Assembly (NCBI GenBank): GCA_965231095.1
Contig: OZ246416.1
Location: 185,228 to 249,227, forward strand
Origin: an uncultured Gammaproteobacteria bacterium
Lineage (GTDB): Bacteria; Patescibacteriota; Patescibacteriia; XYB2-FULL-38-15
Length of the DNA: 64,000 nt
Direction: 5' to 3'
The position numbers were made by a program, and so were the translations under genes. This document shows, piece after piece, positions 4,738-37,666 of the stretch (position 1 is the stretch's first letter; every line of letters begins with the position of its first letter). Below the pieces are notes generated by a model that searched no databases, was not told the origin of the DNA, and was given only the letters and a program-made list of their open reading frames with translations.

Positions 4738-4995
4738 ATTATGGCTTAAAATATTTAAAAATATCTGTTATAATTAATCCGTAGATTCTGTGGTCGAAGA
4801 ATCTGTAACTTATAAAAAACCATAAAAACTATGAGCAAACTCATTAAGGAAATTTTGACCAACAAAGCAGTTCGCAACAGTGGCGCTTTGATGTCGCTTA
4901 TTGTGACCATCATGAGTGTTGGAGTACCTTGGGCTGATAAATAAAATTGCCGCCGAATCGGTACAATTGCGCTCCATGTTAGTGGCCTTAATCCT

Positions 4996-7768: not shown

Positions 7769-7962
7769 CCGTAGCGACTAAAAAGGGCTTTAAGGCCCCT
7801 TTTTATTAGCCTTTGTTTGCCATTATTTGGTCCTGTAGCGAGTTTTTTATGCTTCAGCGAGTATTGGGGAGAGGATTTCCACAGGGGGGGAAACTTGCAC
7901 TTGCCGTTATAATCCGTTATAATCCGTCATATAGACTATAACGTTAAAAGTTAAGCCATTTT

Positions 7963-9027: not shown

Positions 9028-9031
9028 TTTT

Positions 9032-9946: not shown

Positions 9947-9956
9947 TTTAAAAATT

Positions 9957-11852: not shown

Positions 11853-11856
11853 AGTT

Positions 11857-14466
11857 ATGAAGTTAAAATTCGACGCAAATCAAGAATACCAAATCGATGC
11901 AATCAGCGCCGCTGTTGATCTATTCGAAGGTCAGGATAAAAGCGCAAGTAAAATGTTTGCGGGCAATGGACTGCTAGGAATCTACCCAAACATTCTTTCC
12001 CTCTCTAAAGATGATATTTTGGCTAACTGCAGCAGGGTGCAAGAGCACAACAAAACCAAAAATGGAGATGGAACATCCGACTTCGACTTCTCAATCGAAA
12101 TGGAAACCGGAACCGGTAAAACCTACGTCTATCTCCGCACTGTCTTTGAGTTGAATAAAAAATACGGCTGGAAAAAATTTATTGTGTTGGTGCCGTCCGT
12201 TGCTATACGAGAAGGGGTTATTAAGACACTTAACATCACCAAAGACCATTTCGCTGATCTTTACGATAATACGCCGTACCGTTTTTATGAATATCAGTCC
12301 AAGAATATTTCCCAGGTAAAGCACTTTGCCGACAGTTCCAACATCGAGATAATGGTCATGACTATCGGCGCTTTTAATAAAGACACTAACGTACTGTATA
12401 GCGAACGTGACCAGATGCATGGTGAACAGCCGATCAGCTATATCCAAAAGACCAATCCTATTTTAATCCTGGACGAACCGCAGAACATGGAAGGCGAGGC
12501 TACAAAAAAAGCTCTCGACAATTTCAATTCACTTTTCCGCCTACGCTACTCGGCGACCCACCGGAATGTTTATAACCTCATTTACCAACTCGCACCGTAT
12601 GACGCATATCAGATGGGTTTGGTAAAGAAGATCGAGGTCTTTTCAGTAGTGGATGACGATAATGCAACATCCGCGCCATTGCTTAATCTCATCGAAGTGA
12701 AGCCAAGCAAAACCGCAATTAAGGCCCAGATCGAGGTCATCGTAAAAGACGATCAGGGTAATGGCAAAAAGAAAAAAATAAGTGTTAAGCAAGGCGATGA
12801 TCTTGCGAAGAAAACTGAGAACTCAGCCTACGATGGCTACATTGTCGACGAGCTTACTGCGGACGCTCCGGACTTCGGTTCAATCGGTTCCGTGCGCTTC
12901 CGAAACAATGTTCAGGTCAAACAAGGCGAAGGCATCGGTGGCAACAGGCAAGATGTCATGAAAGAACAGATTGCCGAGACTATTAAGCTCCATTTTGAGA
13001 AGAAAAAGAAACTGAAGGAGGTGGGCATCAAAGTTTTATCCCTGTTTTTTATCGATCGCGTAGACAACTATGTCCGGGATGACGGTTTTATACGGCAAAC
13101 ATTTATTCAGCAGTTCAATACTCTTAAAAAAGAATACGGCGAAAGCAACACTGATGTGAGCAAGGTTCACAAAGGCTACTTCGCCATGAAGAATGCCACA
13201 GAGTACATCGAACGCGAATCTGCTATTGCGGAAAACAAGGAGGCATACGAGCTGATCATGAAAGATAAAGAGCGATTGCTTTCCTTTGATGAAGCGACTG
13301 AATTTATTTTCTCGCACTCGGCCCTCAAGGAAGGCTGGGACAATCCTAATATTTTTAACATCTGCACTCTCAATCTGACTTCCTCAACTATGAAAAAGAG
13401 ACAAGAGATAGGTCGTGGTATGCGACTTTGCGTGGATCAATCAGGTGAGCGCATCTTTCTTAAAAACATAAACCTATTGTCGGTCATCGCAAACGAAAGC
13501 TATTCCAGCTATGTGGCGGGCTTACAATCAGAGTTTGTCGAGGATGGCATATACAAAGCACCTCCTGTTCCAAATAATGCCAAGAGCAAAGTTACCGTAA
13601 AGCTCAAAAAGGGATTCGATAAAGATGAAAATTTCCAGGCAATTTGGGATCGTATCTCTAAAAAAACTAAATACGTTGTTCGCGTAAACGCTGATCGCGT
13701 CATTGAAAAAACATCCAAGCGCATTGGGGAGCTTCGGGTCTCAAAGCCACAGATCAAAATTGAGCGGGCTGGCATATCCATTGCGAAGGAAGGTATCGGT
13801 GCGAGCATCATCGGTGGCCAGTCTCAGGAGATGACCCAAACTCGCCGTATGATCGACTGTGTGGAATCCATTAAAAACGAAACCAAGCTGACCCGTGAGA
13901 CTGTCGCCACGATCCTGCAAAAGTCTGATAACTTCAAGTCCCTAGCAAATAATCCTGATCGATTCACTTACGAGACAATCAAGATCATCCGCGAGGAATT
14001 GGTCCGGGATTACGTGGAGCAGATCGCTTATGAAGTGATGCCGGAAAAATACGACGTTAGCCAATTCGAGAATATCCTAAGCTATAAAGATGTGACCCAA
14101 CCGGTTAATCGTTCAATTTACGATGCGATAGTTTACGACTCTGAAGTGGAGCAAAAGTTTGCCGTTGATCTCGATCAGGACGAGCGTATCAAATTATTTA
14201 TAAAGCTTCCTGGATGGTTCAAGATTGAGACGCCGGTCGGTGGCTATAATCCCGATTGGGCAATTGTTACTGCTAAGCGGGATCTGCGCGGTAAGGAAGA
14301 TACAGAGAAGGTCTATTTCGTAATTGAGACTAAGGGCGGGACGAATCTGCGCTCATCCGAACGCGCCAAGATCGACTCGGCAAAAAAGCACTTTGAGGTG
14401 ATCTCAGTTAATTACAAAGAGATCAATAGCGGGTATGAACAGTTCAAGCAAGAATGTATGAATTAA
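11857..14466 (+). CDS. res: Type III restriction enzyme Res subunit (SF2 helicase plus C-terminal PD-(D/E)xK)
   Basis: Motif I TGTGKTY (Walker A, METGTGKTYVYL). Walker B / DEAH-like ILILDEPQNM. Motif VI QEIGRGMRL. C-terminal nuclease motifs YNPDWAIV and FVIETKG. It starts 5 nt after the Mod stop. Confidence 0.75.
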   Translation: MKLKFDANQEYQIDAISAAVDLFEGQDKSASKMFAGNGLLGIYPNILSLSKDDILANCSRVQEHNKTKNGDGTSDFDFSIEMETGTGKTYVYLRTVFELNKKYGWKKFIVLVPSVAIREGVIKTLNITKDHFADLYDNTPYRFYEYQSKNISQVKHFADSSNIEIMVMTIGAFNKDTNVLYSERDQMHGEQPISYIQKTNPILILDEPQNMEGEATKKALDNFNSLFRLRYSATHRNVYNLIYQLAPYDAYQMGLVKKIEVFSVVDDDNATSAPLLNLIEVKPSKTAIKAQIEVIVKDDQGNGKKKKISVKQGDDLAKKTENSAYDGYIVDELTADAPDFGSIGSVRFRNNVQVKQGEGIGGNRQDVMKEQIAETIKLHFEKKKKLKEVGIKVLSLFFIDRVDNYVRDDGFIRQTFIQQFNTLKKEYGESNTDVSKVHKGYFAMKNATEYIERESAIAENKEAYELIMKDKERLLSFDEATEFIFSHSALKEGWDNPNIFNICTLNLTSSTMKKRQEIGRGMRLCVDQSGERIFLKNINLLSVIANESYSSYVAGLQSEFVEDGIYKAPPVPNNAKSKVTVKLKKGFDKDENFQAIWDRISKKTKYVVRVNADRVIEKTSKRIGELRVSKPQIKIERAGISIAKEGIGASIIGGQSQEMTQTRRMIDCVESIKNETKLTRETVATILQKSDNFKSLANNPDRFTYETIKIIREELVRDYVEQIAYEVMPEKYDVSQFENILSYKDVTQPVNRSIYDAIVYDSEVEQKFAVDLDQDERIKLFIKLPGWFKIETPVGGYNPDWAIVTAKRDLRGKEDTEKVYFVIETKGGTNLRSSERAKIDSAKKHFEVISVNYKEINSGYEQFKQECMN

Positions 14467-14470
14467 AAAT

Positions 14471-15454
14471 ATGAAAAATACTTTATACAAAACTGGCTTG
14501 GGGCAATATATTCTAGGGGACTCTCAAAAACTTATTGAGAGCGGTTCTCTTGATCAGTATAAAAACAAAGTCCAACTGATCTTATTCTCTCCACCCTTCC
14601 CCTTAAACGCAAAAAAGAAATATGGCAACAAGCTCGGAAAGGAATACAAAAAATGGTTGGCCGACCTTGCGCCACTATTTACGAAGCTATTAAAAAAAGA
14701 CGGCTCGATCGTAGTAGAGCTGGGCAATGCATGGGAACCTAAGCGGCCGGTCCAAGCCTTACTTTCTCTTGAATCGCTGATCGCATTTTTGAATAACCCT
14801 AAAGCAGACTTGCGCCTGTGCCAGGAATTTATTTGCTATAACCCTTCACGACTCCCATCTCCAGCCCAATGGGTTACCATCAACCGAATCCGTACGATCG
14901 ATAGCTATACGCATGTCTGGTGGATGGCAAAATCTGATTTTCCAAAAGCAGATAACCGCAAAGTTCTTAGACCCTACAGCAAGAGCATGATCCAGCTATT
15001 AAAACGCAAGAGCTATAATTCGGGTAAACGACCATCACAACATAGTATCAGCGAAAAAGGTTTCCTTACTGACAATAAAGGTAGCATTATGCATAACGTG
15101 CTCGAGTTGGAACAGATGGATGAGCAGAGAGAGATGAGGTTGCCACAAAATATGTTTAGTTTTGCAAATACCAACTCAAACGACTTTTTCTCAATACAGT
15201 GCCGCGAAAAGAACATACCAATACATCCGGCACGAATGCCAACCTCGCTCGCAACATTTTTTATAGAATTCCTGACAGACCCAGGTGACATAGTCTTCGA
15301 TCCCTTTGCCGGGACGAACACCACTGGATACTGTGCGGAAAAATTAAAAAGAAAATGGCTCGCGGTAGAAATTGACAAGGATTACGGGAAACAGTCGATT
15401 ATCAGATTCAAAGAGCCAAAACTTACTAAAACATTAACTATTAAAAAAATATGA
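14471..15454 (+). CDS. beta-class N4/N6 DNA methyltransferase (SPPF motif; likely m4C)
   Basis: Motif IV ILFSPPFPLN precedes motif I VFDPFAGTNTTG, which is the beta-class order. The SPPF/SPPY form is commoner in N4-cytosine MTases, so the m4C call is an inference. It starts 5 nt after the Res stop. Confidence 0.7.
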   Translation: MKNTLYKTGLGQYILGDSQKLIESGSLDQYKNKVQLILFSPPFPLNAKKKYGNKLGKEYKKWLADLAPLFTKLLKKDGSIVVELGNAWEPKRPVQALLSLESLIAFLNNPKADLRLCQEFICYNPSRLPSPAQWVTINRIRTIDSYTHVWWMAKSDFPKADNRKVLRPYSKSMIQLLKRKSYNSGKRPSQHSISEKGFLTDNKGSIMHNVLELEQMDEQREMRLPQNMFSFANTNSNDFFSIQCREKNIPIHPARMPTSLATFFIEFLTDPGDIVFDPFAGTNTTGYCAEKLKRKWLAVEIDKDYGKQSIIRFKEPKLTKTLTIKKI

Positions 15455-17439
15455 GCACCAAATCAGTTATCAAAAATCTAGCTTCCGTGGATATCCTGAC
15501 TGAGGCGAAAAACGCCGATGCTCTTATTGGGCGTCCCTTTTACTTGGACTACGAAAAAGCCTGTGTTCTTGTACCAGACGCGTGGAAAATGAAAGTCGGC
15601 GGAATACCGCAGGGTACATTCCTGCTTGCTTTCTACGAGAACGATGAAGGTATCTCCGAGGCGTTGCTTTTAAGAGCGCTCGGCCCGAAGGGTCTGCCCA
15701 CCGATAATGACGTGACAAGTTCGATGATCGAGTACTACAAGGACAACCTGAAAACAGCCGATGTCAAAGGTACTCAGCTCGACGACTTCACTCGTTACCA
15801 CTTCAGTTTTTCAGGACTTGAGTGTCGTATCCTGGGGACTTTTTACAAGGATAAGTCGGGGACGGTAATTTTTGGAGCAGACCTTGAAAACTTCTACAGT
15901 GCCCACAACTATACGGTCTACAAGCCATCTGGCAAAGTCCTCGAGCAAATTGTTAACTACAAGGATTTGAATGAGGTCGCTGGTGGGGTGAGCGATGTGA
16001 AGATCGGAAATGTTCGCTACAGTTCAAGTCTGCGTTTTCAGGATGGTATCGAAAAAGTTCCCGTTTACATTAGCCCCAAGGACTTTATCGGCAAGCGGAC
16101 TGCTCTGTTCGGTATGACTCGTACCGGGAAGTCGAACACAGTAAAGAAGATCATTGAAGCAACAGTTGAGATTAGCCAGAAAGCGAAAAAGGAAAATGGC
16201 AAAGACGCGGGCACTGATCCCTTTACGAAGTCGGGTCTAACAAAAGAACCAATTGGCCAAATTATATTCGACATCAACGGAGAATACGCAAATGCGAACT
16301 TGCAGGACGACGGCACGGCGATATTTGAGATGTATAAAGACGACGTTGTTCGTTACAGCCTGCTAGAAAAGCCGGGTTTCAAGGTGATGAAGACAAACTT
16401 CTTTGACGACATCGATGCCGGTTTCGAATTGCTATGCTCGTTGCTGGCGATGGATGATGCACGCTTTGTTTCAAACTTCCGATCTATCGATCTGACTGTC
16501 CCGCAAGAACTGGAAGATGATCCGAGCTTCAAAGTAAGGCATGCACGCCGGGTGGCGGCGTATAAGTGTTGCTTGCACCAAGCTGGATTCAAGCACAAAG
16601 ACACAACTATTAAATTCTCTGGAGAAGCGACTCTCAATACTCTAGCCAGCGGAATTGATCCGTCAAAGGGCATCACATACGACCAAGCCGTGAACTGGTT
16701 TACGGCGGTATGGGAGGCTACCGGAGAAAATGCCTTTTTTGAGGACTATAAAAAGAAACACGAAGGACGCGAGTGGGCTGACGAAGACTTAAAAGCTCTT
16801 CTCGTTATGCTCACACGCAAGCGCAGTCCTGGCTCTGACAAAGGTGCAGACTGTAGTGGGTTTAGAGTATTTAAACCAGCGTTGAATTTGCACACCGAAA
16901 GTGTCGACAAACCCTACGCAATTGAAATTCTAGAAACCTTGAGAGCGGGGAAGATCGTCATTGCTGACTTGTCGCAGGGCAATCCTGAAATAATTCAGCT
17001 CTACTCGGAGAAGATTTGTCAGCGAGTATTTGCTGATGCAATGAATAACTTTATTGGTGCGAAAAGCAATAATTTTATTCAGATGTATTTCGAAGAGGCT
17101 CACAATCTATTCCCAAAACAGACAGATAAAGACCTCAGTAAAATATATAATCGCTTGGCGAAAGAGGGAGCAAAGCTCCACCTCGGCATTGTCTATGCCA
17201 CCCAAGAGGTAAGCTCCATCAGCTCCAACATCCTCAAAAATACTCAGAACTGGTTTATCGCTCACCTCAACAACGAAGACGAGCTGAAAGAACTTAAAAA
17301 GTATTATGACTTTACCGACTTCACTACCGGTCTCACTAGATTCAGCCCCAACACGGACAAGGGCTTTGTTCGAATGAAAACGTATTCCAATCCATTCGTA
17401 GTTCCGGTTCAGATAGATCGGTTTACGGCAAAAAAATAA
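15451..17439 (+). CDS. HerA/FtsK-superfamily (DUF87-like) ATPase
   Basis: N-terminal beta-rich region, then Walker A ALFGMTRTGKSNT followed by FDINGEY. Walker B is GKIVIADLSQ. A sensor-like HLGIVYATQE follows. It overlaps the MTase stop by 4 nt. Confidence 0.55.
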   Translation: MSTKSVIKNLASVDILTEAKNADALIGRPFYLDYEKACVLVPDAWKMKVGGIPQGTFLLAFYENDEGISEALLLRALGPKGLPTDNDVTSSMIEYYKDNLKTADVKGTQLDDFTRYHFSFSGLECRILGTFYKDKSGTVIFGADLENFYSAHNYTVYKPSGKVLEQIVNYKDLNEVAGGVSDVKIGNVRYSSSLRFQDGIEKVPVYISPKDFIGKRTALFGMTRTGKSNTVKKIIEATVEISQKAKKENGKDAGTDPFTKSGLTKEPIGQIIFDINGEYANANLQDDGTAIFEMYKDDVVRYSLLEKPGFKVMKTNFFDDIDAGFELLCSLLAMDDARFVSNFRSIDLTVPQELEDDPSFKVRHARRVAAYKCCLHQAGFKHKDTTIKFSGEATLNTLASGIDPSKGITYDQAVNWFTAVWEATGENAFFEDYKKKHEGREWADEDLKALLVMLTRKRSPGSDKGADCSGFRVFKPALNLHTESVDKPYAIEILETLRAGKIVIADLSQGNPEIIQLYSEKICQRVFADAMNNFIGAKSNNFIQMYFEEAHNLFPKQTDKDLSKIYNRLAKEGAKLHLGIVYATQEVSSISSNILKNTQNWFIAHLNNEDELKELKKYYDFTDFTTGLTRFSPNTDKGFVRMKTYSNPFVVPVQIDRFTAKK

Positions 17440-17442
17440 CCT

Positions 17443-18801
17443 ATGTCTTACACAAGTCGAGACGGTCGAAGACCGAATGAATACGCCAGCAAATCATCCC
17501 ACGGATATATTATCCGTGATCCGGAAGTTTCTGAATTTCTGGACAAATGCAATCTGCCAAAAGCGGCAGAGGATGTTGAGGTGCCTGCAAACCTTCAATT
17601 CGATTTGGAGCCGCCAGAAAATAATCCAATAAAGCACATCATCGCCGTTGATGGTGGTCGCTCCGAGGTATTTGTAAGAAAAGACTTCCCATCCTCCACG
17701 CTTACATTCTTTCAGTTTGGGGCATTATTTTTCAAAACTGAAGACCTTGAAGCTATATCAAAAAAGGCATTCATCGATCCGGAAGATATGGCCAAGCTCA
17801 ATACCATTGAAAGGTATAAATTGGCTTTGCCGACAAAAAATATCTTGCTAAAGGATGCCGCGTCTTTCAAAGAATCGTTTCGAAAATCATTGTTTGATTT
17901 CTTTATGAAGGGGTCAAGCGGTGAGACTTTCGCGGAGACGTTGCGCTGGCTAATTTTCCAAGAGTTTGACGCCCCACTGGATGAATATAATCTTTCTACA
18001 TGCCCCAACTGCGCTGCGGGCAATATACCTTTAGGCGTAAAAATAAAAAAGACCGAGTTTTCTTATCAATGCCCTCACTGCAAAAAGGAAATATACATCA
18101 CGGACATTTTTCGCTTACACGAAGCTATCGATGACGAACTTGGCGCCGGTGGGGTTTTAGGGTATGTGAATGTGCTGATCGAGCAGATCATCATCGTTTA
18201 TTTAATCAAGGCAATTTTAGAAACAAAGCCAGCGATTCTAAGCGAAACACTTTTTATAAAAGACGGTCCACTTGCGTTCTTTGGCCAGACAGCCAACATG
18301 CAAAAACCATTGAGACATTTGACCACTTTCCTTTCGGAAAAACACAATCTGTTCTTGGCTGGTTTAGAAAAAAGCGGGCCTTTCGTTGAGCATGCGGACG
18401 AGATCGGAAAAAAATTGAAGCCTGGAACTATCCTGCTTCTGGACAACACCTATATTTACAAATATATCTTGCCTGGCAAGGTCGACAACACTGCGCCGTA
18501 CGCTCGGAGCTCTTATTATAGCGGTAAGATGATCTTCAAGTCGGCGGATGGAAAAATTTATGTTGTAACTATCCCTACCAAGAATGCCGACGTAGTCTTG
18601 GCTCCCAAGAAAAGTGATTTCCATAATTTAGACGCGATCCTGACTAATATCCAGAAATTGCGTTGTGATATGTACGATAATTCACTTTTCCCAGTTGCGC
18701 TCGCTAATAAACTTGTTTCCCTTGCTAACCACCCCAGCTCGGCAATCCTCGAAAAGTTTGCAAAAAAGACTATTGGCAAAACAGTCACGCCTCGCATATA
18801 A
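17443..18801 (+). CDS. NurA-like nuclease (RNase H-like fold) with inserted zinc ribbon
   Basis: IIAVDGGRSEV matches NurA motif I (hhAhDGS). FIKDGPLAF matches the NurA hhDGsL motif. Acidic FVEHADE follows. Zinc ribbon CPNC...(22 aa)...CPHC. It starts 4 nt after the HerA-like stop. Confidence 0.45.
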   Translation: MSYTSRDGRRPNEYASKSSHGYIIRDPEVSEFLDKCNLPKAAEDVEVPANLQFDLEPPENNPIKHIIAVDGGRSEVFVRKDFPSSTLTFFQFGALFFKTEDLEAISKKAFIDPEDMAKLNTIERYKLALPTKNILLKDAASFKESFRKSLFDFFMKGSSGETFAETLRWLIFQEFDAPLDEYNLSTCPNCAAGNIPLGVKIKKTEFSYQCPHCKKEIYITDIFRLHEAIDDELGAGGVLGYVNVLIEQIIIVYLIKAILETKPAILSETLFIKDGPLAFFGQTANMQKPLRHLTTFLSEKHNLFLAGLEKSGPFVEHADEIGKKLKPGTILLLDNTYIYKYILPGKVDNTAPYARSSYYSGKMIFKSADGKIYVVTIPTKNADVVLAPKKSDFHNLDAILTNIQKLRCDMYDNSLFPVALANKLVSLANHPSSAILEKFAKKTIGKTVTPRI

Positions 18802-18805
18802 ACCT

Positions 18806-19558
18806 ATGTCGGAATACTACACATCACAACGAGTTAAAGGTTTATACGATCCGGCATCGTCAGAGCCTTTTAAACTGTCACGATCAAAGATTGACCTCTC
18901 TTTGGATTGCCCCCGTTGTTTTTACTACGATCGCAAACTTGGAGTCGGCCGACCCCCTGGCTTTCCGTTCGCTTTAAACTCTGCCGTCGATCATCTCTTA
19001 AAAGCTGAATTCGATATCCATCGTGCCAATGGTACGAAGCACCCTCTTATTGAGAAGTACGGAGTTGATGCACGTCCGATCCCTCATGAGCAATTGGAAA
19101 AATGGCGGCATAATTTTACCGGTATCCAGTATCTGCATCCGGAGACAAACTTTTTGGTATTCGGTGCGATTGATGATCTTTGGCAAAGTCCGCAGGGTGA
19201 ATATATCGTCGTCGATTATAAGGCGACTTCCAAAGCCGAGGACATCACAGAACTAAATAAAGAATGGCAGAACGGATATAAACGTCAGATGGAGGTGTAC
19301 CAGTGGTTGCTCCGCAAAAACGGATTGAAGGTTTCCAGTACTGGCTACTTTGTCTACTGCAACGGCAAGTCAGATCGAACGGCGTTCGATGCAAAGCTCG
19401 ACTTCGACATCACGCTAATTCCTTACATCGGAGATGATTCGTGGGTAGAAAAAGCCCTCATAGATGCTCACAAGTGTCTCAATGGCGATACAATCCCGAC
19501 AGGTAAACCAGGCTGTGATTATTGTGAGTATGTCGAGGCGATATGCAAATATAAGTAG
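18806..19558 (+). CDS. Cas4/RecB-family (DUF83-like) PD-(D/E)xK nuclease with Cys cluster
   Basis: N-terminal CPRC. Motif II FGAIDDLW. Motif III YIVVDYKA. A QxxxY-like MEVYQWLL. C-terminal C-x2-C-x6-C (CDYCEYVEAIC). The ATG at 18806 is 5 nt after the NurA-like stop. The ORF from 18665 lies inside the upstream gene and was rejected. Confidence 0.5.
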   Translation: MSEYYTSQRVKGLYDPASSEPFKLSRSKIDLSLDCPRCFYYDRKLGVGRPPGFPFALNSAVDHLLKAEFDIHRANGTKHPLIEKYGVDARPIPHEQLEKWRHNFTGIQYLHPETNFLVFGAIDDLWQSPQGEYIVVDYKATSKAEDITELNKEWQNGYKRQMEVYQWLLRKNGLKVSSTGYFVYCNGKSDRTAFDAKLDFDITLIPYIGDDSWVEKALIDAHKCLNGDTIPTGKPGCDYCEYVEAICKYK

Positions 19559-19663
19559 TTATCAACCCCGCTTTAGATATGTTCAAAACCATGATTAATT
19601 GATAAAATACAGTTACAATTGAATGTGCCTAAACCCGTCAGCCTGCTGATTGGCATGGCATTT

Positions 19664-19710
19664 AATCCATCCAAGGTATAGAACCCGTCGTCAGGGTTCC
19701 TTGGATGGTT
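19664..19710 (+). other. 48-nt nested stem-loop in a non-coding leader
   Basis: AATCCATCCAAGG pairs with CCTTGGATGGTT (outer, ~12 bp). AACCC pairs with GGGTT (inner, 5 bp) around loop gtcgtca. Confidence 0.5.
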
Positions 19711-19806
19711 GCATAGGGAAACTTATGCATTCGGGCCGAAAGGTTCGAGCTCCTGGCGGCGGGCTTTATGCGAGCCGGTCCGAAATTATACACAGCGCCC
19801 CTTCTT

Positions 19807-19840
19807 GTGCTGATTTTTCAAACTGTGCTATAATTAATTC
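19807..19840 (+). promoter_or_regulatory. sigma70-like promoter with extended -10 (TTGTGC-N18-TGcTATAAT)
   Basis: A perfect TATAAT is preceded by TGc (extended -10). A 4/6 -35 TTGTGC lies 18 nt upstream. It points rightwards toward the portal gene. Confidence 0.3.
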
Positions 19841-20028
19841 AACAGAAAGCGATTGCCTGACGGCGTCCGGGTTTACCGGGCTAAACGAGACGGGGCTACG
19901 ACTTCTGTCATCAACAGCTATTTTATTATGGCTGGTGTGATGACGAGAAGTGGTAGTCCCGCTTTTTGTTTATCCTCTTGAGGCTTCGGCCTCGCATTGA
20001 ACCGACAGGAACCAGATTGGAAATAATT

Positions 20029-20063
20029 GAGCCGAGCCTTAACAGGGTCTCGGCTTATTTTAT
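20029..20063 (+). terminator. intrinsic terminator-like hairpin immediately upstream of the portal start
   Basis: agccgag(cc) ... (gg)gtctcggct gives 7+2 bp, followed by TTATTTTATTT. It lies between the promoter above and the ATG at 20069. Confidence 0.35.
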
Positions 20064-20068
20064 TTCCT

Positions 20069-21952
20069 ATGGCGGAAGCAACATCAACCCAAAAAATCAA
20101 AGAGGAAGAAACTTCTAAAAAAGAAGTGTATTCGCCATCGGCCGACGAGCAGGCGCTCATTGAAAAATGGAAAAAGCGATTTACGCGTTCCGAAGAATAT
20201 CTTCGTCCTTATCGGGCAAAGTGGCTTCGCATGTATAAGCACTACCGGGCCTATCAGGAAAAAACAAATTATGCGTACCAGACCCGGCTCATGCCTCCGA
20301 TTGCATTTCAGATCGTGGAAACAGTGGCCTCGCGTCTTGCAACTGCTAAACGAAAGACGCGCATTCTTCCGCGAGACAAAAAAGATACTGAATCAAAATC
20401 TATTGGTGCTTGGAATGATCTTGTTGGCTATGACTTTGACGTTATTAAACTGTCGAAAAAACTTCCCAAGTGGGTAAAGGCCGCTTCTACATATGGGAAT
20501 GGAATCGGCATGCTGACCTGGCTTACCGACGAAAGCATTGATCACGATGACCCATTCCTAACCATCTGCGACCTGTGGGACATTTTGCCTGCTCCTGAAA
20601 CTGAAGACCTAGAAGATGATTGTCCTTGGCTTATCCGCCGTATTTTGAAATCAAAAGACAAAATTGAGCGCGAAGAAAAAGCCCGCGGCGAAAACGTACT
20701 TTATAAAAATGTGAATTTCCTCGAAGCAAAACAAGTCGAGGATTGGAAGAAGGAGCGATACGAAGTGAACACCAAAAAGATGGGCCAGATTCAAAGTTCA
20801 GAATCGGTGGAAACTTCCAGCTCAGTAATTAAAGTCACTGGAGAAAAATATGAACCGGAAAAACAGATCGAATTGTGGGAGTGTTACGACTTTGAAGAAG
20901 GAAAATTGATCACTCTCGGCAACCGCGAAGTGCTGATGCGCGACGACGAGAATCCATACAAGAAAGTAAACCACGGCCGCATCTTCCTGAACTTGGCGGA
21001 TCACGAAGTCAACTGGGAACTTTGGGGTATTGGCCACATCGAGCCAGTTGAAACGACCATTGTTGAAATTGCAGATCTCCGCAATCAGCGCATGGACGAC
21101 GTCATTCTAATGCTTGATCCGGTAATTAAGATTCGCAAAGACTCCGGCATTTCAAAAAACGACATCATTTTTGCACCCGGTGCAAAGTGGGAGCTTCGCA
21201 AGATGGATGATGTAGTCGTCGAACGATTGCCGGACATCAGCCTCATGGGAGTGAACGAAGAAAGAGCCTTGCGTGATGAGATCGAGCGGACGCTTGCTAT
21301 CTCTGAATATGCCCAAGGCATGCCAAAGTCTTCCGATGAACCGCTCGGCAAAGTAGCCATGCTTATCGGCCAGAGCAACCTGCGTTTAAGTTCTTTTTCC
21401 CAAAATTTAGCCGAGACGCTCAGCAGCCTCGCTAACATGCTGATAGAGATGAACCAGGAATTTATCGAGGAAGACAAATTGTATCGCGTAATCGGCGACG
21501 AGGTGAGCTTTAAGGAATTCACAATGGCAGACAAAGAAGTAAAGGTCGATGCCGTGGTGACGGTTGATCCGGTCGTGCCTCCCGATCAGCAGGCCCGGCT
21601 CAATCAGTCTTTGCTCCTGTACGACAAGTTTGTGGCACAGGACAAACCTGATCCGAACAGTCCCGATGAAATCAAACAGTGGAAAAAACGAAAGCGTGCG
21701 ATTCAGGAAATGATCCTCGAAGAAATGGGCAAAGAGGCGTATCGAGTCGTAATTCTCGGCGAAGAAAAAAACGAAACCACTCAAGGTAAAGAGCCGGTGA
21801 TTCAGCCGGGAGAACCTCCGCCCATATCGGAAGCAGGTGCTCCACCGGACGCATTACCACCGCCAACTCCGCAAGCGCGTCCTGGCTTCTTGAGAAGCGT
21901 GCTGTCGAGAATTCCTTTTATCGGTCGAGGTCAAAAAACAATTAATCAATAA
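20069..21952 (+). CDS. phage portal (head-to-tail connector) protein, candidate
   Basis: About 630 aa, acidic, with no Walker A. It is the first gene of a module followed by a scaffold-like protein and a capsid. The start is set at the second ATG because the first ATG (20027) sits inside the terminator hairpin. Confidence 0.45.
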   Translation: MAEATSTQKIKEEETSKKEVYSPSADEQALIEKWKKRFTRSEEYLRPYRAKWLRMYKHYRAYQEKTNYAYQTRLMPPIAFQIVETVASRLATAKRKTRILPRDKKDTESKSIGAWNDLVGYDFDVIKLSKKLPKWVKAASTYGNGIGMLTWLTDESIDHDDPFLTICDLWDILPAPETEDLEDDCPWLIRRILKSKDKIEREEKARGENVLYKNVNFLEAKQVEDWKKERYEVNTKKMGQIQSSESVETSSSVIKVTGEKYEPEKQIELWECYDFEEGKLITLGNREVLMRDDENPYKKVNHGRIFLNLADHEVNWELWGIGHIEPVETTIVEIADLRNQRMDDVILMLDPVIKIRKDSGISKNDIIFAPGAKWELRKMDDVVVERLPDISLMGVNEERALRDEIERTLAISEYAQGMPKSSDEPLGKVAMLIGQSNLRLSSFSQNLAETLSSLANMLIEMNQEFIEEDKLYRVIGDEVSFKEFTMADKEVKVDAVVTVDPVVPPDQQARLNQSLLLYDKFVAQDKPDPNSPDEIKQWKKRKRAIQEMILEEMGKEAYRVVILGEEKNETTQGKEPVIQPGEPPPISEAGAPPDALPPPTPQARPGFLRSVLSRIPFIGRGQKTINQ

Positions 21953-21956
21953 CGCT

Positions 21957-22151
21957 ATGGCAAAAAATAACCAGACAACAAAAGTCATCACCGCAATTGT
22001 ACTGAGTAAGACATTGAGTGGCGGCGATTGCATCGTGTCCTTGCAGGAAGACCAAGGCCGAGTGCATACGATTTACCTCTCCAAAGAGGAGTCTTCCAAA
22101 ATCGACTTGGGTCACAAGCTCAAGTTAACCATTGAAAAGGTCGAAAATTAA
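21957..22151 (+). CDS. small phage protein (64 aa)
   Basis: Compact ORF 5 nt after the portal stop, with Lys/Glu-rich composition. Confidence 0.3.
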   Translation: MAKNNQTTKVITAIVLSKTLSGGDCIVSLQEDQGRVHTIYLSKEESSKIDLGHKLKLTIEKVEN

Positions 22152-22170
22152 TCAATTTAATCACACACAT

Positions 22171-22503
22171 ATGCCAGACAAAAAAATGAAAAAGAAGAAC
22201 GATCTCGCCGACGAAAGGTTTCCAGAGGGCGACAAGATCGAGTTCAAAAATCAAAAGCCTGTTCGGGAAGAAAGTGGGCAAATGGAAGCTCGCTGGAAAA
22301 AGGTCGAAAGCGTTATAGGCGCGGCAAAGGAAGCCTATCAATCAGGCAAATCAAATTTCAGCGAAGTATTGGAAAGCCTGATTGCCACCCTTCAAGACAT
22401 GCTGGACACCGATGTAGGGGGTAAAGATCTCGGCGGGCTCATGACGAATGGGCCGGAGATGGATCTTCCGCCGGAGCCTGCGCCGGAGGAAGAACAACAA
22501 TAA
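22171..22503 (+). CDS. small charged phage protein (~110 aa)
   Basis: An ORF in the structural module. The ATG at 22171 avoids overlap with the upstream gene. The C-terminus is Pro/Glu-rich. Confidence 0.3.
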   Translation: MPDKKMKKKNDLADERFPEGDKIEFKNQKPVREESGQMEARWKKVESVIGAAKEAYQSGKSNFSEVLESLIATLQDMLDTDVGGKDLGGLMTNGPEMDLPPEPAPEEEQQ

Positions 22504-22507
22504 ATAT

Positions 22508-22786
22508 ATGCAGACCAACGAGGAAAAATTTGAAACAGGGTTGGCGGTGCTGGGGATGGTCAGAACGGCTGGCTGGAAATGGCTCGAAGCAAAAATTCGC
22601 GCAGATCTCGCAATTGAATATGCGGAGCTCCGAGATTTTGACATTTCGGGAAAGACAGCCGAGCAAATTGCTTCCGACTATCTTCAGCGCCGAGCCAATG
22701 CTAACGCTTACGAGAAAATTCTCGCGTTGGTCGACGATGCCATTCGTGACAAGGACGAAGCGGCAGGCGCAATGAGCCAGGAGTAA
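22508..22786 (+). CDS. small phage protein (92 aa)
   Basis: The ATG at 22508 is 5 nt after the upstream stop. The protein is predicted helical. Confidence 0.3.
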   Translation: MQTNEEKFETGLAVLGMVRTAGWKWLEAKIRADLAIEYAELRDFDISGKTAEQIASDYLQRRANANAYEKILALVDDAIRDKDEAAGAMSQE

Positions 22787-22877
22787 CACGATGCCTATGG
22801 AGTACGCGGCAAAAAACATTGGGGGCAAGGTCGAACCCCAACCTAGTAAATAAAAATTCAATTTAACAAGCGCTTTT

Positions 22878-23747
22878 ATGAATCAAGATCGTAAAAAGGA
22901 GCTCGACGCTCTCCTCAACGCAAACTCGGAAGATGAGGAAACGGATACCGAAGAAGAAGACACCCAGGAAGACAAGGGTGAGGAAGAAGACGAGGAAACC
23001 GACACCGAAGATTCTGAAGAAGAAACCGACGAAGACGAAGAAACTGACGAGGAAGAATCGGATGACGGCGAATCGGAAAATTCCGATGACGAGGAAGAAA
23101 CCGAGGAAGATGCAGGGGGCGAGGCATCCAAGCAGAAAAACAAGTGGCACGGTAAAAGCCGTGAGGAAGTGATCCGAATGTATGAGGATCTCGAAACAAA
23201 AAACCAACCGCCAAAGCGAACAAAAGCCAAGCCTGATGCCAAGAAGGAAAACGATGAGGCCAAGGGCGAGGGAGTAGACGTCCCTAATGACGAAGAACTG
23301 GCCAAGATGACCCCCAAGCAGTTCGCAGAATGGATGGTTACGACAGTTCAAAGCATCGTCGGCAAAACCTACGATGCGCGAAGCCGGATGCGAGATTCCG
23401 CCGCGCAAGAAATTCGAGAGGCTCAGAAAGATCACCCTCTTCTGAAGACCAGTCCAGAGTACCGCGAACTCGTGCTGTCTTTGATCGACGCCGCTTCCCA
23501 AAAAGGAACGGTTATGCCGCTCAAAGAAGCGTGCATGAAGGTCGATGGATTCGCTGGAAAGGTAAAAGGAGACACAAAAGTTTCTGACACTGAGAAGATT
23601 CGCCTCAAGAAAGCCAAAGCGCAAGTCGAGAGAGGAGCGGGCGCTCCGACCTCGCCGGGCGAAGAAAAGGGTGCGGAAGAACGCCGCCTCGAAAACATCT
23701 TCGGAACAAGCGGGTCAAATGGCCCCTTAGGAGGCCTTGGGGTTTAA
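22878..23747 (+). CDS. hyper-acidic scaffolding-like protein (289 aa)
   Basis: About 90 residues of D/E/T/S-rich repeats (EEDEETDTEDSEEETDEDEETDEEESDDGE) precede a helical charged C-terminal half. It lies between portal and capsid, the usual scaffold position. Confidence 0.4.
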   Translation: MNQDRKKELDALLNANSEDEETDTEEEDTQEDKGEEEDEETDTEDSEEETDEDEETDEEESDDGESENSDDEEETEEDAGGEASKQKNKWHGKSREEVIRMYEDLETKNQPPKRTKAKPDAKKENDEAKGEGVDVPNDEELAKMTPKQFAEWMVTTVQSIVGKTYDARSRMRDSAAQEIREAQKDHPLLKTSPEYRELVLSLIDAASQKGTVMPLKEACMKVDGFAGKVKGDTKVSDTEKIRLKKAKAQVERGAGAPTSPGEEKGAEERRLENIFGTSGSNGPLGGLGV

Positions 23748-23805
23748 AACCTCATATAGCAAGGTCGAACCTCCTATCAGTTAATTAATCAACCAACAAC
23801 AAGAT

Positions 23806-24984
23806 ATGTCATCAGCAAATGGAATCAGAGGAACCGCGAACTTGGGCGTTACGCGCAAGTACGACGTAGCGGATGTAATCTCGCTTCTTGACGTAGCGCG
23901 TTATCCGCTGCTTGGCATTCTCACGAACGCCGGGAAAGACCCCGCAACCAAGCAGGGCAAGGCACTCAAGAAAAAAGAAACGAGCGATCCGGACTTCAAG
24001 TGGTTTGAGGATAAATTCGGTGCGCGCGAAGACATCGTTGCGGCCAACCAAGGAGCGGCAGTCACACTGGTTGTGACCAACGGTGCGTACTTTAGCATCG
24101 GTGACGTCCTGCTCGTAGTGAAATCGGCCCAGGGCACGAACAACCCGACCGGCGAAGTCATGCTCGTAACGGACGTGGCAACCAACACGCTCACCCTTGT
24201 GCGCCAGATCGGTGACGGCGGTTCAGGCGGAGGTCTGCTTCAGCAGAACGACATCGTCTGGATCATTGGTAATGCCAACGAAGAAGGTGCGGACCTCCGC
24301 ACAATGAAAGGAACGACGATCGCTGAAGTGCTCAACTACTGCCAGATTTTCCGAACTACGATTGGAGTCACTGAAACTTCACGCAACACCAAGGGCCTGA
24401 CAAAGGAGAACGACTTTGACTATCAGATTCGCAAGAAAGGTATCGAGCACTTGGTAGACATCGAGCGAGCTTTCCTATTCGGGAAAAAGGAGATCATCAC
24501 TTCCGGTACACATCCGAAACGATTTACCGGCGGAGTTCTACCTCGCATCAGCCAGGTCACCAGCAACGTAGCAACCCGCGACGACTTCAACAGCTACCTG
24601 AGAATCTTGTTCGCTCACGGCAACACCGAGAAATACTTGCTTGCTTCCGGTTACGTGATCGACAAGATCAACGGATTCGCTCACGACAAGTTGCAGGTAC
24701 TGCAAGGAGAAAAAACTTTTGGATTAACCATCCTTAAGTATCTTTCTCCGCACGGTACGCTAAACATCATCAAGCACGATCTGCTTGCGGGGGATCTGTA
24801 CGGCAAGAGCGGTGTCGGTGTAGACATGGAAGCTTTGACCTACCGATATCTCGCCAACCGTGACAGCAAGCTTCTCACGAATCGACAAGCACCTGGCGAA
24901 GATTCACGAGTAGACGAGTACCTGACCGAATGTGGCCTCCAGATGGAACAGCCTGAACGTCACGCAATCGTTAAGTTCGCTTAA
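23806..24984 (+). CDS. major capsid protein, candidate (392 aa)
   Basis: Position after the scaffold-like gene, size, and a terminator-like hairpin directly downstream. No sequence signature was verified. Confidence 0.4.
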   Translation: MSSANGIRGTANLGVTRKYDVADVISLLDVARYPLLGILTNAGKDPATKQGKALKKKETSDPDFKWFEDKFGAREDIVAANQGAAVTLVVTNGAYFSIGDVLLVVKSAQGTNNPTGEVMLVTDVATNTLTLVRQIGDGGSGGGLLQQNDIVWIIGNANEEGADLRTMKGTTIAEVLNYCQIFRTTIGVTETSRNTKGLTKENDFDYQIRKKGIEHLVDIERAFLFGKKEIITSGTHPKRFTGGVLPRISQVTSNVATRDDFNSYLRILFAHGNTEKYLLASGYVIDKINGFAHDKLQVLQGEKTFGLTILKYLSPHGTLNIIKHDLLAGDLYGKSGVGVDMEALTYRYLANRDSKLLTNRQAPGEDSRVDEYLTECGLQMEQPERHAIVKFA

Positions 24985-25027
24985 GCAGTCCTTCAAGTCT
25001 CGGTCGGACGGGCATGCTTTCCGAACC

Positions 25028-25065
25028 CGCCTGACCGAGTGGAAAGCCCTTGAGGGGTTTTCCGC
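25028..25065 (+). terminator. hairpin plus T-tract downstream of the putative capsid gene
   Basis: ctcggtcggacggg ... cccgcctgaccgag forms an imperfect inverted repeat. cccttgagggg is followed by tttt. Confidence 0.25.
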
Positions 25066-25121
25066 GGAAAATGAAAGGTCGATTCCGCGGTTATTACAAA
25101 AATAATTTCACATTAATTCGT

Positions 25122-25556
25122 ATGGCAAAAAATCAAGCACCGACGGCCGAAAAGCCGAAGACAAAGAGCAAGCGCTACGCAACCCGTTACGGACAGCATT
25201 ACGCGATCGTGATGATCCCGACCGTGACTGAAATCATCAACGGAATGGCGATAACGCGTCCAGGAAAAACAATCGAATTCAAGAATGGCATTTACGAAAC
25301 GAAGGATTCTGCCGAACAAGACTTCCTGGATAATTCTCCGTTTGTCGGCATCGACTATCAGGAAGTCACAAAGGCAGTGACTTCGGCTCTTGAAGCCAAG
25401 TCGTTGTCGGAAAAGGAATCCGAATTGAAGGAGAAAGAAGAAGATCTGAAGCGCAGAGAGATGGCGCTCAAAGGCAAAGAAGAAGGATCAGACTCCTCAT
25501 CTGGAAAAGAAACCAAAAGCGAGGGGAAGACAAAAAAGAAAGAGCCAAAGTTCTAA
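25122..25556 (+). CDS. phage protein with Lys/Glu-rich coiled C-terminus (144 aa)
   Basis: ORF starting at MAKNQAPTAEKPK. The C-terminal part reads EKESELKEKEEDLKRREMALKGKEE. Confidence 0.3.
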   Translation: MAKNQAPTAEKPKTKSKRYATRYGQHYAIVMIPTVTEIINGMAITRPGKTIEFKNGIYETKDSAEQDFLDNSPFVGIDYQEVTKAVTSALEAKSLSEKESELKEKEEDLKRREMALKGKEEGSDSSSGKETKSEGKTKKKEPKF

Positions 25557-25611
25557 ACTCTCGGCTCGTTAAAGGTCGAACCATTATCAACCAAACATAA
25601 GGCACAACGAT

Positions 25612-25905
25612 ATGGCGATAGAAAGTAAATCAAAATTCGCGGTGAACGAAGCGACTGTGGCCAGCGCAGGCACTGCCGTGCAGCTTCCCGATATTCCAGT
25701 CGGCGAGGGGTGCGATCTCGTCGTAAAGGCAAAGCGCACCAATCTCGGCGTGATCAAGGTCGGAGAATCCGCGCTACAGGCTCAGGCGGGGAAATTCACC
25801 CTAGAGCCAGGCGAAGCGGTGAAGCTCCGCATTAGCAATGCGAACAAAGGCTACATCGACGCGGAAGTCACCGGCGACAAAGTAGAGATAATCGTTGAGC
25901 AATAA
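25612..25905 (+). CDS. small phage structural protein (97 aa)
   Basis: Compact ORF in the structural module. Confidence 0.3.
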   Translation: MAIESKSKFAVNEATVASAGTAVQLPDIPVGEGCDLVVKAKRTNLGVIKVGESALQAQAGKFTLEPGEAVKLRISNANKGYIDAEVTGDKVEIIVEQ

Positions 25906-25911
25906 GCTCCT

Positions 25912-26499
25912 ATGTCAGATTTCATTCCTCAGCAGGGAGACTTCAACTTCCTGCGGTTCAGAAAAACCGGCAGATACTTCGGGCCATTCATGACCGGTGG
26001 GACAGTGACCACGCAGTCGGCAGCGTCTGCAAACTCACTACGCGCCTTTCCATTCTTTGTCCCGAAGACACAAAAGTTTGACCGGATAGCAATACGCGTC
26101 ACGACATTGGCAAGCGGCACAACTCCAAAGGCGCGCCTTGGCGTGTATGAAGACAAAGGCGACGGAAGCGTCTATCCAGGAAAACTAGTGCTCGATGCGG
26201 GCGAGGTGGATGTGAACACCACGGGGCTTAAAGAGATCACGATCAATCTCACGCTCAAAGGCGGGAAACTTTACTGGCTCGCTTTTGTGGGTCAAGACAC
26301 CACTGCACTCGTGCTCGCAGCAATTCCTGCAGCGGACGCGATGGCGACATTCCTCGGTTTTGACAACGGGCTGACTGGCACACCGTACTTGGGTTATGCG
26401 GTAACGCAAACCTATGGCGCATTGCCAGCAACATACCCGACTGCAAGCCCGACGGATTGGAGTCTGAACGTGCCGCTCATTGCCTTACGCAAAGCATAA
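25912..26499 (+). CDS. phage structural protein (195 aa)
   Basis: It starts 6 nt after the upstream stop, with beta-rich composition. Confidence 0.35.
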   Translation: MSDFIPQQGDFNFLRFRKTGRYFGPFMTGGTVTTQSAASANSLRAFPFFVPKTQKFDRIAIRVTTLASGTTPKARLGVYEDKGDGSVYPGKLVLDAGEVDVNTTGLKEITINLTLKGGKLYWLAFVGQDTTALVLAAIPAADAMATFLGFDNGLTGTPYLGYAVTQTYGALPATYPTASPTDWSLNVPLIALRKA

Positions 26500-26501
26500 G
26501 T

Positions 26502-28148: not shown

Positions 28149-28152
28149 TACC

Positions 28153-28800
28153 ATGCAACTACAAGAATTCCTACAAGACCTCAACGCACGAATGTCGGCG
28201 GCCAAGACCACCGGGTTTTGGAGTGAAGTCGATAAAAAAAGATGGATTAATAAATCCATTATTCGGGCATGCAACTTTGCCAAATGGAACTTTCTCAACC
28301 ACCACTCAACTCAGCTGACCGAGAAAGATATCGAGGCTTACTTCAACCCCTTCGACTACAAGCCGGGCGGAATGATGTTCATCAAAGTCGACGGCCAAGA
28401 GCATGCAAAAACGAGCGTTGAAAATTATCAAAGTGGAAATCATGTGTGGGAGCGGGTGTTCTGCATTCTTGGCGACCAGTACCTGATCAAGCCCACGCCG
28501 CTTGAAGACGGAAAACTCATCGACATCTACTACCGCAGGCGTCCGATTCCGCTGGTGAATGACACAGACGAACCGATCACCCCTGAGGAAATGGAAGAAG
28601 CGATCATCAAGCTGGCTCTCGGCATCTGTCTAAAGAAAGAACCGAACCGAAGCTCAGATGCGGACAAGCAGATTCTGGAAGCGACCGCAATTCTTCAGCA
28701 AATAAAAGACCGCCAAGACGAGGAAGGTGGAGAGGCCGGATTCACCGGGCAGGCAACAAGCTCGCGCTTTCTCTACAAGAACAGTAATCCGCAGGATTAA
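28153..28800 (+). CDS. phage structural protein (215 aa)
   Basis: It starts 5 nt after the upstream stop. No motif was recognised. Confidence 0.35.
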   Translation: MQLQEFLQDLNARMSAAKTTGFWSEVDKKRWINKSIIRACNFAKWNFLNHHSTQLTEKDIEAYFNPFDYKPGGMMFIKVDGQEHAKTSVENYQSGNHVWERVFCILGDQYLIKPTPLEDGKLIDIYYRRRPIPLVNDTDEPITPEEMEEAIIKLALGICLKKEPNRSSDADKQILEATAILQQIKDRQDEEGGEAGFTGQATSSRFLYKNSNPQD

Positions 28801-28805
28801 AAACT

Positions 28806-30248: not shown

Positions 30249-30252
30249 AGCT

Positions 30253-31362: not shown

Positions 31363-31405
31363 CAATAAAAGGTCGATCAATTAAAAATCAATTGGCATCC
31401 ATACC

Positions 31406-31618
31406 ATGTTTACAAAAAAATTAGACAAAACAGACCTCGAAGAACTCCGCAAACGGCAGGAGCTTATTCATCAGCACCAGCTCATAACGCAGGCTTTAGA
31501 AGTGCAAAAACAGCAATACATCATGAGTCGCTTTCCCAAGTACAGACTCGATCCGAACAGAAAGTATGACATTGACTTGAAAACTGGCCGGATCACGGAA
31601 GCCAAACCAAATATATAA
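31406..31618 (+). CDS. small phage protein (70 aa)
   Basis: Compact ORF between the fibre gene and the next structural gene. Confidence 0.3.
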   Translation: MFTKKLDKTDLEELRKRQELIHQHQLITQALEVQKQQYIMSRFPKYRLDPNRKYDIDLKTGRITEAKPNI

Positions 31619-31622
31619 ATCT

Positions 31623-32723: not shown

Positions 32724-32730
32724 AACTACT

Positions 32731-36609: not shown

Positions 36610-36656
36610 AGACCCTTGTGTTGTAGCTTACACTCGGCTCAAAAAGCAAATCCGTT

Positions 36657-36884: not shown

Positions 36885-36888
36885 CGCC

Positions 36889-37470: not shown

Positions 37471-37473
37471 ATT

Positions 37474-37650: not shown

Positions 37651-37666
37651 AGTCGAAAGTTTATCA

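Follow-up and report, generated by a model that had tools for sequence, protein, structure and literature searches.

A LOOT RNA and a conserved promoter, leader and terminator unit upstream of the portal gene of an SU10-like prophage

The window analysed here, the whole stretch of 64,000 nucleotides, carries a prophage whose portal gene starts at an ATG at 20069, and this study concerns the 510-base region 19560–20068 that separates this gene from the gene of a PD-(D/E)XK nuclease (18665–19558). The gap before the portal gene contains two RNA elements: the known orphan RNA LOOT and an undescribed, conserved unit composed of a promoter, a structured leader and one or more terminators. The best explanation of the region is that it holds two transcription units on the + strand, the first producing LOOT and the second acting as the control region of the late, structural operon. 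The open reading frames (ORFs) within 19560–20068 vary in frame and extent between close relatives and are missing in others, none of them is conserved, and the pattern of conservation is that of paired RNA. This bears out the preliminary description of the region, made from the letters alone, in which no credible ORF was recognized. The elements named in that description (a nested hairpin, an extended −10 promoter and a terminator) are largely real, but its anatomy has to be corrected, as the hairpin is part of LOOT and a further terminator had been overlooked. The Rfam scan it proposed, carried out over 18500–21000 with E up to 10, returned LOOT as the sole family and gave no match for the leader.

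The leader and its tandem terminators

Transcription of the second unit is predicted to start near 19841–19843, downstream of a promoter at 19805–19834 (+) with the −35 hexamer TTGTGC (19805–19810), an 18-nt spacer and the extended −10 element TGcTATAAT (19826–19834), of which the TG occupies 19826–19827 and TATAAT 19829–19834. The −35 hexamer of the window matches the consensus at three of six positions and was for this reason not listed by a consensus scan. The extended −10 promoter noted in the preliminary description is confirmed with small shifts in coordinates: about 25 of 31 relatives share TGnTAnAAT at an unchanging distance, and the −35 of many of them reads TTGACA or TTGCAA. Nucleotide homology across clades begins abruptly at 19805–19843 in most clades, and at about 19572 only in those that carry LOOT. 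Q-dependent late leaders of lambdoid phages combine a DNA element in the promoter that is bound by Q with a −10-like element in the initial transcribed region, at which a sigma-dependent, promoter-proximal pause occurs. Here, the initial transcribed region of many members contains hexamers resembling A-G-Y-R-A-T (AGCGAT, AGCAAT, AGTAAT), which lack the A at position 2 that is key to a −10 element. A candidate internal promoter in the second half of the leader (TTGAAC-N19-AATAAT), which would bypass the last terminator, was rejected because of its poor spacer and unconserved −10.

The leader consists of two modules. Module 1 (19843–19971, +) comprises AGAAAG, the invariant motif GCCUGACGGCG (19855–19865), a covarying hairpin P1 (19865–19881), CUAAACGAGA, a long GC-based hairpin (19891–19961) and a U-run (19963–19971). 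Within it, GCCTGACGGC is a short invariant element located about 15–25 nt after the start, for which a mini-hairpin is possible. The loop of P1 is not conserved, and several clades are without this hairpin. The long hairpin, with strands CGGGGCUAC.../...GUAGUCCCG and a base formed by GGGGCUAC/GUAGUCCC, is followed by the U-run tail CUUUUUGUUU (19962–19971) about 125 nt from the predicted start, and is referred to as terminator 1. Module 2 (19972–20068, +) contains a UUCG-capped hairpin, GAGGCUUCGGCCUC (19980–19993), a conserved linker and terminator 2, in which GAGCCGAGCC pairs with GGGUCUCGGCUU in a stem with one bulge (20029–20056) followed by AUUUUAUUU, with a U-run (20057–20065) that ends 3 nt before the portal ATG. 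Both hairpins have the GC-rich stem base and adjoining U-run of an intrinsic terminator on the transcribed strand, and both show compensatory changes. Neither was listed by a simple terminator scan, owing to the long apical part of terminator 1 and the bulge of terminator 2.

The terminator previously placed at 20029–20063 is upheld and conserved, with its U-run extending to 20065, but the single terminator and product of about 200 nt that had been proposed give way to two tandem terminators with predicted products of about 125 and 225 nt. Terminator 1 (19891–19971) is the stronger of the two and closes a structured leader of about 125 nt. Folding of 19843–19972 yields a minimum free energy (MFE) of −66.6 kcal/mol (z = −8.1), and folding of the whole leader (19843–20075) yields −110.6 kcal/mol (z = −9.75). 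A long-range pairing of CCUGACGG with CCGACAGG of module 2, present in the MFE fold, was discarded, being lost in relatives with a changed sequence at this place. As far as Rfam 15 and the searched literature go, the leader is an undescribed conserved RNA element.

Relatives were gathered with the portal protein, yielding 14 viral contigs and 19 genome contigs, and a profile search added 76 metagenome loci, cited here by their handles (L). The genome contigs are mostly metagenome-assembled genomes labelled Doudnabacteria, Saccharibacteria, Parcubacteria, Moranbacteria and Daviesbacteria, with a few other labels, and DNA and protein searches of 50,697 deposited phage records found no cultured relative. 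When the 300 nt preceding the portal ATG were aligned with MAFFT, conserved blocks appeared in a constant order: the extended −10, AGAAAG, GCCUGACGGCG, a variable hairpin, CUAAACGAGA, ACGGGGCUACGACUUCUGU, a loop, GAAGUGGUAGUCCCG and the U-run. Conservation of the leader ahead of the portal ATG extends to relatives with as little as about 56% portal identity, and the leader was recovered upstream of the portal gene in more than 50 loci using nhmmer and a covariance model (R1, 29 pairs) built from 15 sequences. In viral contigs, a loose DNA pattern, TGACGGCGT-N-ACGGGGCT, picked out 120 stretches, nearly all of them chance matches in GC-rich coding DNA; a tighter pattern found the portal family only, plus one chance match.

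Covariation, assessed in a set of 42 distinct sequences with E below 1e-11 (A6), lends the structure strong support. Standard pairs make up 96.1% of the cells, and 14 of the 29 pairs have changed on both sides, including five of the seven in P1. As the A6 alignment was fitted to R1 it is biased towards the structure; none of 500 shuffles reached the observed values, and sliding the partners by 1–3 columns left 30–50% paired. Furthermore, P1 variants read straight from the sequences agree with A6 (GUCCGG/CCGGGC, GUUCCGAU/AUCGGAAC, GUCUC/GAGAC, and also GUCUCC/GGAGAC, GUUCUA/UAGAAC and GCCUG/CAGGC). On the 3' strand, G-C and G-U alternate frequently, with 20 such alternations from GC to GU at single pairs, and A-C is not tolerated. 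This frequent alternation indicates pairing at the level of RNA rather than DNA.

The order of elements is kept more widely than their sequence. A hairpin with a U-run ending 0–31 nt before the portal ATG is present in 66 of the 72 distinct relatives with at least 44% portal identity, and five of the six misses carry a UUUUAUAUUUUU tail that the pattern did not catch; below 44% identity it is present in none of seven. The succession of promoter, hairpin with U-run and portal ATG persists even where the leader sequence is unrelated (L210, L213, L217, L220, L224). Module 2 is kept in the sub-clades of the window, L003, L007, L009, L020 and L027, and the stem of terminator 2, GCCGAGC/GCUCGGC, is preserved; in L029 one G-C pair of it has become A-U by compensatory change. 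A group of compact relatives (L005, L006, L010, L011, L024, L025, L030, L033) lacks module 2, so that terminator 1 abuts the ATG and the first U-run ends 10–16 nt before it. Because this leaves no space for another promoter, the portal mRNA of the compact relatives must cross a terminator.

In clade B (58–60% portal identity) the leader is shorter and consists of GCCUAACGAAUYUAUCGGGGCU, a hairpin and a U-run, with a pre-terminator part of only about 25–30 nt. In five loci of this clade (L011, L030, L033, L186, L198) a second complete unit lies between the portal gene and the remaining structural genes. It has its own promoter (TTGACA-N17-TACAAT) and shares the motif GCCUAACGAAUYUAUCGGGGCU with the first, while its stem is different and internally compensated. 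The genes behind it, among them those for the scaffold and the major capsid protein, are homologues of the next structural genes of the window. The portal gene of L194 is split from the other structural genes by about 5.7 kb of unrelated inserted genes, and a leader copy again heads the latter. Elements of clade B carry two or three copies, each heading a structural transcription unit, while the window has a single copy. Five further loci of clade B (L187, L188, L190, L191, L197) carry the leader and the portal gene followed by unrelated genes from about 7875, such as that for a small membrane protein; the portal gene there may stand apart from the other genes of the module or may be a remnant.

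The LOOT RNA upstream of the leader

LOOT (RF03000) was found by cmscan at 19626–19747 (+); the match scores 75.9 bits, the gathering score being 46.4, and spans model positions 1–121 of 121. The consensus architecture of the family is present in full: a 5' stem enclosing a hairpin, a long hairpin in the centre and a pair of short hairpins with GNRA caps, both of them GAAA tetraloops here. All helices are seen in the cmscan alignment, in which the few non-canonical pairs occur solely towards the tip of the central stem, and the MFE fold is in accord with it. The 48-nt nested hairpin previously noted at 19664–19710 does exist, not as a stand-alone structure but as the central stem of this full-length LOOT. 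The family derives from metagenomes and stems from a screen published in 2017 (Weinberg 2017, PMC5737381); the Rfam 14 paper (PMC7779021) likewise presents it as metagenome-based. Neither the main text of PMC5737381 nor PMC7779021 assigns it a function. In Rfam, LOOT is typed as a small RNA (sRNA).

Judged from its sequence, the LOOT unit is best explained as a small RNA of about 200 nt with its own putative promoter and a weak terminator. The putative promoter (19583–19608, +) combines TTCAAA with the extended −10 TGaTAAAAT (TG at 19600–19601, TAAAAT at 19603–19608), and TGATAAAAT or TGATATAAT together with the upstream TTCAAAA is kept across LOOT-bearing loci in an alignment of these (A2). 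The conserved sequence outruns the Rfam model to about 19785, with nhmmer matches reaching 19783, and this extension is invariant in A2. Beyond the model, the segment 19748–19818 (+) begins with CUCCUGGCGGCGGGCUUUAUGC... and ends with a weak hairpin and U-run (19793–19818), where a pattern scan also lists a terminator-like site (19793–19812 plus ATTTTT). The −35 of the leader promoter sits inside the loop of this hairpin. The RNA thus seems to extend about 40–70 nt past the Rfam model, with a tail able to pair with the central loop: the loop sequence CGUCGUCAGG (19686–19695) is complementary over 10 bp to CCUGGCGGCG (19752–19761), and one compensatory C-G to G-C change in this pairing is found in L184 (370–379 with 439–448). 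This pairing may represent an unmodelled pseudoknot or an extension of the LOOT family.

All matches to the LOOT profile immediately precede the leader promoter, share its strand and belong to one portal family. LOOT lies at the identical position in L001, L002, L016, L017, L018, L026, L029, L167–L171 and L184, which fall into three portal sub-clades: a group with 92–99% identity, L029 (67%) and L184 (61%). L015, with 99% portal identity, has no LOOT, which makes LOOT an optional or accessory partner of the leader. In comparison with the Rfam family as described, the genomic context is defined here, since LOOT in every case immediately precedes the late-operon leader of a single portal family. 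For the orphan RNA, this provides an exact location in the genome, to which the hint of a 3' extension or pseudoknot missing from the model is added. A DNA pattern for LOOT picked up ten extra loci in viral contigs, every one of which was false according to Rfam. Among the loci picked up by chance are a DUF3800-VII RNA (L157 3728–3819) and group II intron domains (L163 12172–12268; L165 10759–10827), which are unrelated.

The central loop of LOOT (19686–19695) is also complementary to the leader motif CCUGACGGCG (19856–19865), and in 920 kb of portal loci the exact complement of this motif has no + strand occurrence outside LOOT. The probability of such a match is about 0.01 for that motif, and about 0.33 once any 10-mer of the 5' region of the leader is allowed, so that the complementarity is a weak lead and not a finding.

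Proposed antitermination and alternative explanations

While LOOT is already known, the second unit is best classed as an undescribed, terminated late-operon leader. For the favoured proposal that it needs processive antitermination, following the logic of lambda pR'/tR', in SU10-like prophages residing mostly in bacteria of the candidate phyla radiation (CPR), we regard the chances as about even. Its observed basis is formed by the elements with their order and conservation, by the pairing of the RNA and, in one clade, by the second copy of the unit at the head of another operon; to this it adds that the hairpins would terminate transcription, that read-through would be regulated and that a dedicated factor would exist. 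In the proposed mechanism, the extended −10, sigma-70-type promoter would start transcription near 19841, and the nascent RNA would fold into the single-stranded motif GCCUGACGGCG, the covarying hairpin and the long GC-based hairpin with its U-run. By default, the polymerase would stop at 19963–19971, or else at terminator 2 (20057–20065) before the portal ATG. The structural genes would be made only by polymerase that has started at the leader promoter and has been turned terminator-resistant, the trigger being a factor that recognizes the conserved motif near the promoter, either in the RNA or in the non-template DNA strand. Polymerase that comes in from the variable accessory and defence genes upstream would be halted at the same terminators. 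Such insulation would be needed because restriction and accessory genes on the same strand form a hypervariable island in the upstream DNA, from which the leader terminators would shield the structural genes.

In lambda, the pR'-qut-tR' region comprises a sigma-70 promoter that produces the short 6S RNA, an intrinsic terminator before the late genes and the site of antitermination by Q. The 6S RNA is made from pR'-tR', and phages encoding Stx produce the sRNA StxS. The leader resembles lambda pR'/tR' and StxS in its constitutive-looking sigma-70 promoter and its short terminated transcript before the first late gene. As in lambda, one long late operon lies behind the leader, and the short RNA itself can be a product. 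It differs in having two tandem terminators, conserved sequence with covarying structure in the leader and no detected Q-family protein; the place just upstream of the promoter, where Q is classically encoded, is taken by variable cargo (the PD-(D/E)XK nuclease in the window), its hosts belong to the CPR and it heads an SU10-like structural module. A Q mechanism has no need of the strongly conserved RNA sequence and structure that the leader carries. The lambda-like layout put forward in the preliminary description is thus partly supported, namely for the architecture, with a promoter and then terminators before the first structural gene in 66 of 72 relatives with at least 44% portal identity and no further + strand consensus promoter or terminator listed inside 20069–37650, but not for a Q system.

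Other processive systems are set off by signals in the nascent RNA, such as the nut sites of lambda N and the put RNAs of HK022. Similar to these, the leader carries a promoter-proximal conserved RNA element before the terminators, in the form of a short motif followed by a hairpin, and in clade B the element is repeated at the head of two operons of one phage, which by analogy would correspond to the nutL/nutR or putL/putR pattern. Unlike these, it matches neither boxA/boxB nor the two-stem put fold in sequence or structure, P1 has no conserved loop and is absent from several clades, and the portal gene rather than an N-like gene comes first behind the leader. Operon-specific antitermination of the RfaH/LoaP type uses an ops-like element in the leader. 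The short invariant GCCTGACGGC near the start of a long operon with terminators in its leader is similar by analogy only, as the leader has no sequence similarity to ops and no NusG paralogue was identified.

Several observations weigh against antitermination. The search for a Q-like antiterminator that had been suggested revealed none, and neither an N-like protein, a NusG paralogue nor any other antiterminator was detected among the window ORFs scanned with Pfam and PHROGs, although the prophage may continue to the left beyond the window and a divergent Q protein could escape detection. In addition, the −35 of the window is poor (3/6), invariant motifs cannot covary, so that the comparison cannot probe the recognition step, and a strong promoter followed by a terminator is exactly what an independent small-RNA gene looks like. 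The unit might then be mainly a stand-alone, trans-acting sRNA of about 125 nt (about 225 nt upon read-through), produced constitutively like lambda 6S or StxS, with the conserved 5' motif as its seed and late-gene expression as a by-product of leaky read-through. This explanation, which we consider doubtful but worth keeping in view, agrees with the typical sRNA build of an own promoter, a conserved single-stranded 5' motif and a stable terminator hairpin, with the sibling copies that share a motif and differ in their stems, as in multicopy sRNA families, and with the typing of the neighbouring LOOT as sRNA. An sRNA gene does not need to be joined to the start of a co-oriented structural gene without another promoter, yet the unit always is. 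Moreover, no mRNA target was found in the window, where the complement of the motif occurs five times with at most one mismatch against 4.4 expected, and the only exact match to it on the + strand lies within LOOT.

The hairpins could also be passive, insulating against transcription from the accessory genes upstream and stabilizing the 5' end of the portal mRNA behind a leaky promoter, with no dedicated regulation. The variable cargo island directly upstream on the same strand is compatible with this, as is a genome without Shine-Dalgarno sequences, in which AU-rich tails before an ATG are normal. A passive role is nonetheless improbable, given that the conserved order is promoter and then terminator instead of the reverse, that the 5' motif is invariant although a terminator does not need it, and that a second operon is preceded by a duplicate of the complete unit. 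A riboswitch-like or protein-dependent attenuator, operating by the logic of BglG/RAT, T-boxes or riboswitches, would instead block terminator 1 by an alternative fold that a ligand or an RNA-binding protein stabilizes. The covarying hairpin with conserved nucleotides at its junctions, together with the conservation of the 5' strand in the terminator stem, does resemble an aptamer with its expression platform, and by inspection of the sequence the 5' GCCU could pair with GGGGC at the terminator base. RNAalifold on the alignment cut before the 3' strand gave only the mini-hairpin, P1 and a weak local hairpin, however, and this absence of a conserved alternative helix, the very short pre-terminator part in clade B (about 25–30 nt) and the two unrelated tandem terminators of many members, which a single switch could not both open, favour processive antitermination over structure switching. 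As P1 is dispensable and no Rfam riboswitch matched with E up to 10, we hold such an attenuator to be quite improbable.

A DNA-level element beside the portal gene, such as a packaging (pac/cos) site, an origin or an attachment site, has the faintest chance of all. The position on the border between the variable region and the structural module would suit it, and terminase and portal genes adjoin in distant relatives; the acceptance of G-U and exclusion of A-C in the pairing is, however, a mark of RNA, both the promoter and the U-runs are specific to one strand, and no direct repeat of the attachment type connects the region with the integrase end. LOOT or the leader as an integration target was rejected, as there is no direct repeat to the integrase end and TerL lies upstream of the cargo in relatives. 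The latter position of the terminase also places the leader region in the interior of the phage genome.

The leader might also be a new class of antitermination signal for the late genes of CPR phages with LOOT as its RNA partner, the invariant loop CGUCGUCAGG pairing with either the tail CCUGGCGGCG or the invariant leader motif CCUGACGGCG as an RNA-RNA switch that sets read-through into the structural operon. We consider this highly improbable; if true, it would be the first function for the orphan LOOT family. Regarding the leader as such, late-gene timing in phages of CPR bacteria (Patescibacteria) is almost wholly uncharted, and processive antitermination at the leader offers a concrete, operon-specific hypothesis, while the covariance model R1 provides a sequence handle for locating such leaders in metagenomes.

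The operon, the cargo island and the prophage

The portal gene (20069–21952, +) is the first gene of a structural and lysis operon of about 17.6 kb that extends from 20069 to about 37650. Its identification is based on weak Pfam matches to P22/SU10 portals and a PHROG portal/connector match. The structural module is SU10-like, with an SU10-type major capsid protein (23806–24984) and an SU10 adaptor (28153–28800), and continues through tail, amidase and LPD38 genes up to a strong terminator (37665–37693). On the + strand, a scan revealed no consensus promoter or terminator within 20069–37650, the same simple scan listing neither leader hairpin. A tyrosine integrase gene follows at 38117–39265, and host genes begin at 40679.

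Relatives with 10-kb flanks share a ground plan of TerL, a YceG-like gene, 3–7 kb of variable cargo, the leader and the portal gene. In the window, the YceG-like gene (2999–4069) is followed by about 15 kb of cargo on the same strand (4072–19558), encoding a response regulator and kinase, Fic, DUF5655, a type III restriction-modification system, an extra methylase, a HerA-like ATPase and the PD-(D/E)XK nuclease. The cargo differs in every clade, with for instance NgoFVII/Z1/Vsr, ArsA, a Dam-like methylase with MarR, or an SNF2 helicase (stretches compared: L015 360–3725, L017 582–2429, L007 981–3733, L009 726–3640 and L246–L252). The island between the YceG-like gene and the leader looks like a hotspot for defence and accessory genes of the prophage. 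No TerL homologue was found anywhere in the window (1–64000), and it may lie beyond the left edge. In closer relatives TerL is located upstream of the YceG-like gene, whereas in distant ones (37–50% portal identity; L226, L233, L230, L227, L224, L215) it is located immediately upstream of the portal gene.

A motif resembling Shine-Dalgarno sequences is present at only six of 45 gene starts in the window, the upstream regions being AU-rich. The start of the portal gene without such a motif is ordinary for this reason, and a special translation signal at this gene was dismissed. AGGAGG is present in clade-B relatives (e.g. L011 at about 6020), a sign that the initiation signals of their hosts may differ.

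Between the end of the lysis genes and the integrase gene lies a non-coding stretch of 470 nt (37650–38116) without an Rfam match at the gathering threshold, which could hold an attachment site or another RNA. Just past the integrase, a perfect sigma-70 consensus promoter (TTGACA-16-TATAAT, 39262–39289) precedes an ORF of 78 amino acids resembling helix-turn-helix proteins. GTTGACAGA is repeated around this promoter, with a near copy, GTTGACAAA, close to 39498 (within 39255–39530), and these repeats could be operators of the small regulator.

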